Assembly: GCA_964016885.1 (NCBI GenBank)
Contig: OZ024749.1
Coordinates: 24,800,001-24,864,000 of the forward strand
Source of the DNA: Eledone cirrhosa
Lineage: Eukaryota
Direction: 5' to 3'
DNA length: 64,000 nt
This document shows positions 32,745-32,858 of the stretch, one piece after another. Below the pieces are notes generated by a model. It ran no database searches and was not told where the DNA came from. It worked only from the letters and a program-made list of their open reading frames with translations. How positions within the stretch are numbered: position 1 is the stretch's first letter; every line of letters starts with the position of its first letter. Both the position numbers and the translations under genes were made by a program.

Positions 32745-32858
32745 GATGAGATTCTACAGGACTAGAACTGTTTCATTCTTTAGAAATCATCATCAGGAAT
32801 CTGCTATGTATTGAGTACCTTACTTACTGTGGTTACCTCCGATTCAACCCGGAATAAC
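32745..32858 (-). mobile_element. 114 bp mini-element: short leader plus hammerhead (32749-32802), directly between (TA)n tracts
   Basis: Reverse complement: gttattccgggttgaatcggaggtaaccacagtaagtaaggtactcaatacatagc agattc CTGATGA tgat ttct aa agaa t GAAA cag ttctagtc ct GTA gaatct. Confidence 0.8.

Follow-up and report, generated by a model that had tools for sequence, protein, structure and literature searches.

A ribozyme-bearing insert in a TA tract of Eledone cirrhosa read as a clipped two-armed insertion of a Penelope-like element

What kind of object is a stretch of only 114 nt that carries a hammerhead motif and sits between two TA tracts? The question is raised by positions 32745-32858 of a 64,000-nucleotide stretch of the Eledone cirrhosa genome (contig OZ024749.1), the whole of which is here called the window. 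A sequence-only reading had taken the insert for a short leader followed by a complete hammerhead, with selection acting on the RNA fold, and for a defined monomer that could be one of the smallest mobilised ribozyme RNAs. Comparison with other copies in the genome points instead to the end repeat of a coding Penelope-like element (PLE).

The insert and its parent element

The limits of the insert are those that the sequence-only reading gave, with a (TA)n target tract on the left (32618-32744) and another on the right (32859-32950). On the minus strand, the insert begins with 55 nt, followed by CAGATTC CTGATGA TGA TTTC TAAA GAAT GAAA and then by CAG TTCTAGTC CTG TA GAATCT CATC. The unit is not a product of chance, since all 40 matches scored, from 372 candidates in a search of the genome (3.0 Gb, 1,796 contigs), agreed with it at 86-100%. 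Nearly all of 30 fetched copies lie within TA-rich tracts and their ends are near-fixed; the window copy has 114 nt, against 111 nt in other copies with the same junction.

Two arms can be recognised. Arm 2 (32745-32803, minus strand) is an inverted piece of a PLE pseudo-LTR with a type I hammerhead, its sequence agreeing at 93-95% with the hammerheads that precede the PLE frame at loci L091 and L092; its outer end falls between CATC and TA, at a site termed B1. Arm 1 (32800-32858, plus strand) is a PLE tail in element sense with its outer end at site A (..CCCGGAATAAC), and it is identical at 59 of 59 positions to L092:1059-1117, a copy that runs on into the frame for reverse transcriptase (RT) and GIY-YIG. 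What had been described as a leader is thus the PLE tail in antisense. The splice-donor-like words seen in it have the letters described, but they lie antisense to the PLE frame and a splice-donor role is therefore rejected; GTAAGT occurs 19 and 20 times on the two strands of the window.

The arms share 4 nt at their junction (TCTG/CAGA, 32800-32803). In the parent, ..CCCAGATTCC precedes the hammerhead and ..TATACTCTGC lies within the tail; CAGA is present in both stretches and can therefore be assigned to either arm. Judged by its sequence, the insert derives from an abundant Hydra-type PLE and is a two-armed insertion in clipped form, in which an inverted hammerhead arm and a PLE tail stand back to back across the 4-nt microhomology CAGA.

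The parent has a single frame encoding RT and then a C-terminal GIY-YIG domain (L091). No intact copy was found, the frames of both fetched copies, L091 and L092, being interrupted. In these two copies the order is hammerhead, tail, RT and GIY-YIG frame, with an ATG in L092 at 1166, 49 nt past site A. The other end of the parent is seen in L047, where the end of the frame is followed by a 3' UTR, the hammerhead, the tail and (TA)n; the frame ends of L047 and L091 are 87% identical across 745 nt. The L091 frame has a YRDD motif and is 39% identical over 500 aa and 36% over 244 aa to a 744-aa PLE frame elsewhere in the window. Pfam gave a GIY-YIG match below its cut-off (E=2e-4) and no match to the RT part of the parent, and a PDB sequence search with the parent RT gave nothing (best E=0.17).

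Hydra-clade PLEs, which include an Octopus family, are marked by DKT, RW[K/R], a CxCX5C linker, CxxC and CxH (PMC8557442). When L091 is compared by eye with section 11 of that paper, SDKTKN, RIRWRAF (with R for K), CNCLNKEAC, CDLC and CMH are found. Like Hydra-1_Obim and other elements of this clade (Craig et al. 2021, PMC8557442), the family has a C-terminal GIY-YIG domain, a hammerhead in the end repeat (pseudo-LTR), an optional tail, inverted truncated copies and (TA)n targets. On these motifs, the parent is a coding PLE of Hydra-clade type. Its hammerhead differs in sequence from that of Hydra-1_Obim, making it a different family, and three 11-12-nt probes had no match in the searched part of the supplement to that paper. 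The tail is also longer, 67-78 nt against the 30-40 nt described for PLEs (PMC8557442, PMC11167929).

The family is abundant. A 31-nt hammerhead segment of the insert's subfamily occurs at 16,398 places in the genome and the sense link from hammerhead to tail at 7,867, while patterns for two sister subfamilies occur at 1,340 and 5,931 (all controls 0).

The window is rich in other repeats. A PLE at 41801-46885 has an open 744-aa RT and GIY-YIG frame (43514-45745, with DKT and CxCX5C), long inverted arms that are 97-100% identical, and a different hammerhead core, at 41952 on the minus and 46734 on the plus strand. A second, unrelated PLE with inverted ends (32957-35899; hammerhead cores at 33138 on the minus and 35721 on the plus strand) starts about 100 nt from the insert. 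The same terminus adjoins another junction copy, L009, and different PLE families therefore pile up in the same TA tracts. Direct end repeats of a decayed PLE (36081-36582 and 41015-41516, 98% identical) contain minus-strand matches to Rfam Hammerhead_1 at 36124-36168 and 41058-41102 (31.7 bits, cut-off 34). Tandem and inverted copies of a unit of about 230-320 nt lie between TA tracts at 7729-8681, with a weak Hammerhead_HH9 match at 7869-7945 on the minus strand (32 bits, cut-off 52). L1/Tx1-like LINE frames, a 225-nt tandem SINE-like repeat and a long near-perfect hairpin are found at 1-2773 (minus strand), 9057-10281 and 14167-14257, and the SINE-like repeat has copies at 13615, 34406, 39140 and 54701.

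The hammerhead motif and its variation

The predicted hammerhead spans 32749-32802 on the minus strand, as judged from the sequence and from pair counts on related copies. Stem I (AGATTC/GAATCT) pairs 32802-32797 with 32754-32749, the core consists of CTGATGA (32796-32790) and GAAA (32774-32771), stem II lies at 32785-32776, and stem III (32770-32757) has the form CAG..CTG with a palindromic CTAG loop. The cleavage triplet is GTA, with the predicted cut after 32755. The type I layout of a complete hammerhead is thus present, as the sequence-only reading recognised, but stem II is closed by U.U instead of G10.1-C11.1, and an extra TGA (32787-32789) stands between the core and stem II. This TGA is private to the window copy (1 of 27 same-junction rows), being absent from all 26 of the other rows listed. 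We know of no precedent for three extra bases after A9 in hammerheads, and the window ribozyme is therefore likely impaired.

In the family at large, the core CUGANGA / GAAA / NUH and three helices in type I layout are present. In 24 arms hand-picked from the 190 found, 97.1% of cells are paired, and two of the 12 pairs, both in stem I, show compensatory changes (C-G/A-U and A-U/G-C). Among related arms, little variation is seen in stems II and III, and loop II varies freely. When these 24 hand-picked rows were shuffled, 421 of 500 shuffles reached the pair count and 0 of 500 reached the covariation score. The difference between agcttc/gaagct and agattc/gaatct in stem I, on which the proposal of selection was based, is correctly described and is the C-G/A-U change. 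The two compensatory changes represent two evolutionary events, however, and these separate parent subfamilies rather than copies of the unit. The selection on the hammerhead fold suggested by the compensatory pairs would thus have acted at the level of the parent PLE subfamilies, and the support for it, though real, is thin.

The U.U base of stem II is found in 57 of 57 tabulated arms, the search pattern having left both positions free. The hammerhead fold lies above the energy minimum (-3.2 against -8.2 and -7.0 kcal/mol). At E<=1, no hammerhead match at the insert is present among the 150 of 227 Rfam matches listed, which the TA repeats fill with miRNA models. CTGGTGA takes the place of CTGATGA in the core of 14 of 112 distinct motifs, mostly of the AGCTTC subfamily (for example in L035, L047, L049, L051 and at 14908-14925 of the window), and this may mark either a dead sublineage or A-to-G editing.

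The PLE hammerheads described by Cervera and de la Pena in 2014 (PMC4209133) are similar in many respects: they are of type I with a palindromic loop 3, occur as opposite-strand pairs or solo, exist in thousands of copies from truncated PLEs, and covary between families. The present motif differs from those in that U.U, not G10.1-C11.1, closes its stem II of 3 bp, and in that its stem III is a real helix of 3 bp carrying an 8-nt loop.

Ends and inner junctions of the insertions

Given that the hammerhead belongs to a longer element, the other places in the window that had been listed as related copies of the unit can be reconsidered. The one at 14858-15037 (plus strand) is a palindromic two-armed insertion of the AGCTTC subfamily, consisting of an inverted hammerhead, a direct hammerhead, a linker and the tail; it ends with the reverse complement of the supposed leader, and relatives fetched alongside have the same order. 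The one at 57306-57453 (minus strand) is a decayed two-armed insertion with the tail and two partial hammerhead arms, lacking an intact hammerhead (CTGATGA and stem I are absent). The copies at 17493 and 20184 match only unit positions 67-111, without leader. They belong to a sister-subfamily hammerhead (17492-17544, minus strand; AGCTTC stem I, CTGAAGA core, ATCT loop) that stands at the end of a longer arm without a tail and is duplicated at 20183-20235. This hammerhead lies at the left end of the unit of a 2.7-kb tandem duplication (17487-19833 and 20178-22527, 99.6-100% identical) with no long frame inside. The observation of a near-constant outer boundary does hold, for 32858, 15036 and about 57307, and by sequence comparison it is the common insertion end of the PLE.

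The anatomy of these insertions was surveyed in the first 61 along contig C1 that contain the 31-mer, taken from the first part of 100 listed places. By pattern, 31 of the 61 show a pair of hammerhead arms in opposite orientation within 400 nt, 26 have a single arm, and four have an opposed tail without a second hammerhead, two of these four being possibly false matches. The insert's own junction was seen by eye in 0 of the 61. At the start of C1, a single hammerhead fragment (L145-L149, L153 and L156) has been multiplied passively in a larger repeated block with identical flanks. The loop II allele is common to both arms in 22 of 22 copies of the young subfamily, and in 30 of 36 when older ones are included.

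Outer ends fall on few sites. Among 85 arms, 35 end at site A, 28 at B2 (after TATTAAAAC) and 17 at B1 (after CATC), while three read on into the frame and two end otherwise. In element coordinates, the distance from site A is 67 nt for B2 and 78 nt for B1, and the predicted hammerhead cut falls 10 nt before B1, so the arm ends are not cleavage ends. The PLE protein of the anole cuts and extends both strands of AT-rich DNA in vitro. It starts at two sites inside the RNA, which mark the limits of the tail, and hammerhead cleavage is dispensable (PMC11167929). The fixed ends of the present family match these two reverse-transcription start sites, by analogy with an element of another clade. Like Poseidon PAc of Anolis carolinensis (Frangieh et al. 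2024, PMC11167929), the family has tail-delimiting sites downstream of the hammerhead and AT-rich targets; unlike PAc, whose frame starts inside the hammerhead, its ATG lies well past site A.

These ends bear directly on whether the insert is a retrozyme-type monomer, self-cleaved from tandem copies and circularised. Metazoan non-LTR retrozymes are likewise small, non-coding, of type I and derived from PLE end repeats, and they occur as same-strand tandem units with linear and circular RNA of 170-400 nt (PMC7229834; preprint 10.64898/2026.07.22.740005). A U.U pair at the base of stem II is compatible with activity in an axolotl retrozyme (PMC7229834), and solo retrozyme monomers exist (preprint 10.64898/2026.07.22.740005). 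The insert, unlike retrozymes, is a two-strand chimera with one hammerhead and without an array. Its copies have their ends where the PLE start sites lie and not where cleavage is predicted, and the unit folds no better than shuffles (z=+1.14). The tandem arrays expected of such a monomer did not appear, with no head-to-tail array among 174 loci; one hammerhead per copy allows no monomer release. Same-strand hammerhead pairs less than 400 nt apart amount to five distinct cases in these loci, spaced at 140-350 nt, and three close junction copies at C2:223.05 Mb are a local triplication of 2.5-3 kb of TA-rich sequence. A retrozyme origin can hardly be credited.

Inner junctions are far more variable than outer ends. 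The 24-nt junction of the insert occurs at 26 places on many contigs, three of them within the local triplication. Collapsed junctions in general were sought as antisense tail followed by sense stem II within 16 nt, a gap limit that favours short forms, and they occur at 257 places (control 8). Among 100 of these listed, a hand count gave 76 distinct junction strings. That of the insert is the commonest, with 10 of 100 rows, or eight after merging the triplication (hand count), and is thus favoured but not special. Several collapsed junctions have extra bases matching neither arm, as seen by eye among the same 100, and similar short joints are present in sister subfamilies (L139, L141 and L143). 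The longer coding element with variable boundaries that would speak against a free unit is therefore found at the inner junction, while the outer ends are fixed.

One could suppose that the 111-nt chimera, once formed, is transcribed in its own right and that the PLE enzyme copies it anew, which would make it a minimal non-autonomous element derived from few masters. Its 26 exact junction sites on many contigs, its near-fixed ends, the retention of site A in sense on the plus strand and the rank of its junction would all fit. Yet a junction in which GCAGA is joined to TGATTTCT, so that stem I is lost together with part of the core, is nearly as frequent (9 of the 100 listed), so an intact ribozyme is unnecessary for a common joint. 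Only about 30 of the 100 keep the 5' strand of stem I, in a set whose pattern favours short forms, and the chimera is without the sequence downstream of site A that the anole protein requires in vitro (PMC11167929).

The haplotypes add to this. Six are distinguished at three sites among 25 junction copies (triplication counted once), and five of them are present among 30 parent arms, where ATAG/TAAA/CTTC, the sixth, is absent; a single master is thereby excluded. Tail allele ATTG goes only with loop TAAA, in junction copies and parent arms alike. This linkage is significant in both the junction copies (10/0/5/7, p=0.005; three dropped, one ambiguous and two with other loops) and the parent arms (7/0/6/15, p=0.001; two dropped), so that arm alleles in collapsed copies are linked as in the parent despite their arms not overlapping. 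Outer ends of junction copies vary among the parent's A, B1 and B2 variants. That the junction copies carry several of the parent's haplotypes, linked as in the parent, points to their repeated independent origin, although a few secondary masters could also yield the largest haplotype class, of 10 near-identical copies. With at least six haplotypes mirroring those of the parent, re-copying from few masters is improbable.

The defined mobilised monomer RNA of the sequence-only reading is not supported by these comparisons, as its halves belong to the two opposite strands of a longer coding element, and as the junctions are many and the haplotypes several. In assembled contigs from four sequencing runs (one study, at most two samples), both halves of the unit are covered, some contigs reaching the CAGA overlap; none of those listed spans the unit, and their loose ends continue into parent sequence. 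These contigs are given no weight here.

Formation of the insert and its meaning

The reading that we favour, with a probability of roughly 0.7, is that the insert arose in one abortive insertion by the PLE enzyme into a TA tract, in which both ends were primed and the products joined at a microhomology. The GIY-YIG domain would cut both strands of (TA)n, and both DNA ends would serve as primers for reverse transcription of the same element RNA, starting at site A in one case and at site B in the other. Both cDNAs would stop early, anneal at CAGA and then be repaired. The same product would recur because the start sites are fixed and the microhomology favours the joint. The reading is consistent with the origin of both pieces in the end repeat of a coding PLE, with the residence of the family in (TA)n and with the variation of the inner junctions. 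Since the arms of collapsed copies do not overlap, one arm cannot be a fold-back copy of the other. The hammerhead would be a passenger in the insert, likely selected in the parent RNA. A collision model, in which arm 1 stops on meeting the primer of arm 2, is not supported: one and the same inner junction is combined with outer end B1 in some copies and B2 in others, and the ends of arm 1 are scattered.

The same sequence would result if a palindromic two-armed insertion later lost its direct hammerhead by asymmetric microhomology-mediated DNA deletion. Palindromes are unstable in DNA, short palindromic insertions outnumber every other form (31 of 61), CAGA is repeated at both breakpoints, and the haplotype linkage would be equally expected. 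The junction copies, however, are as young as the parent, arm 1 being 100% identical to L092, and the extra junction bases fit end joining, though end joining after insertion is possible. On balance, later deletion appears unlikely.

Formation at insertion recalls twin priming of LINE-1, in which inverted and direct pieces come from adjacent, non-overlapping parts of one RNA and meet at a microhomology joint, the first primer using the poly(A) end and the second a variable site. The present case shares the joining of an inverted and a direct piece of one RNA at a microhomology; unlike LINE-1, both starts are at fixed internal sites and the arms usually overlap in the family.

Parts of this picture are known. 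Opposite-strand pairs of PLE hammerheads have been described (PMC4209133), as have inverted truncated PLE copies with a tail at one end (PMC8557442). The latter paper figures inverted copies overlapping the direct copy, whereas the arms of the insert do not overlap, and the non-overlapping form of inverted hammerhead plus tail was not found in the consulted part of its text. A literature search gave no paper on the insert's PLE family or on a non-overlapping class of PLE junctions, though supplements may list the family; a paper on Octopus vulgaris repeats mentions PLE expansion and, in the part consulted, no ribozymes (PMC13282606). The origin of the inverted PLE arm and optional tail is thus partly known, in that start sites and extension of both strands, but not joining, have been established in vitro; joining of the two cDNAs was not part of the PAc work (PMC11167929, as consulted).

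As a ribozyme replicon, the insert fails; its value is mechanistic. If the collapsed copies were formed at insertion, they would be genomic evidence that both ends of a break prime on one RNA, as well as evidence for microhomology joining. It is a doubtful further step to suppose that abortive two-ended insertions repeatedly make a 111-nt chimera that keeps a start site, and that some are then re-copied; if true, the re-copied chimeras would be the smallest known ribozyme-bearing non-autonomous retroelements, mini-elements caught at birth. The case also advises caution, in that a discrete RNA does not necessarily follow from fixed ends or from short units recurring near PLE hammerheads. The family itself is a source of thousands of young junctions on which two-ended priming can be tested.
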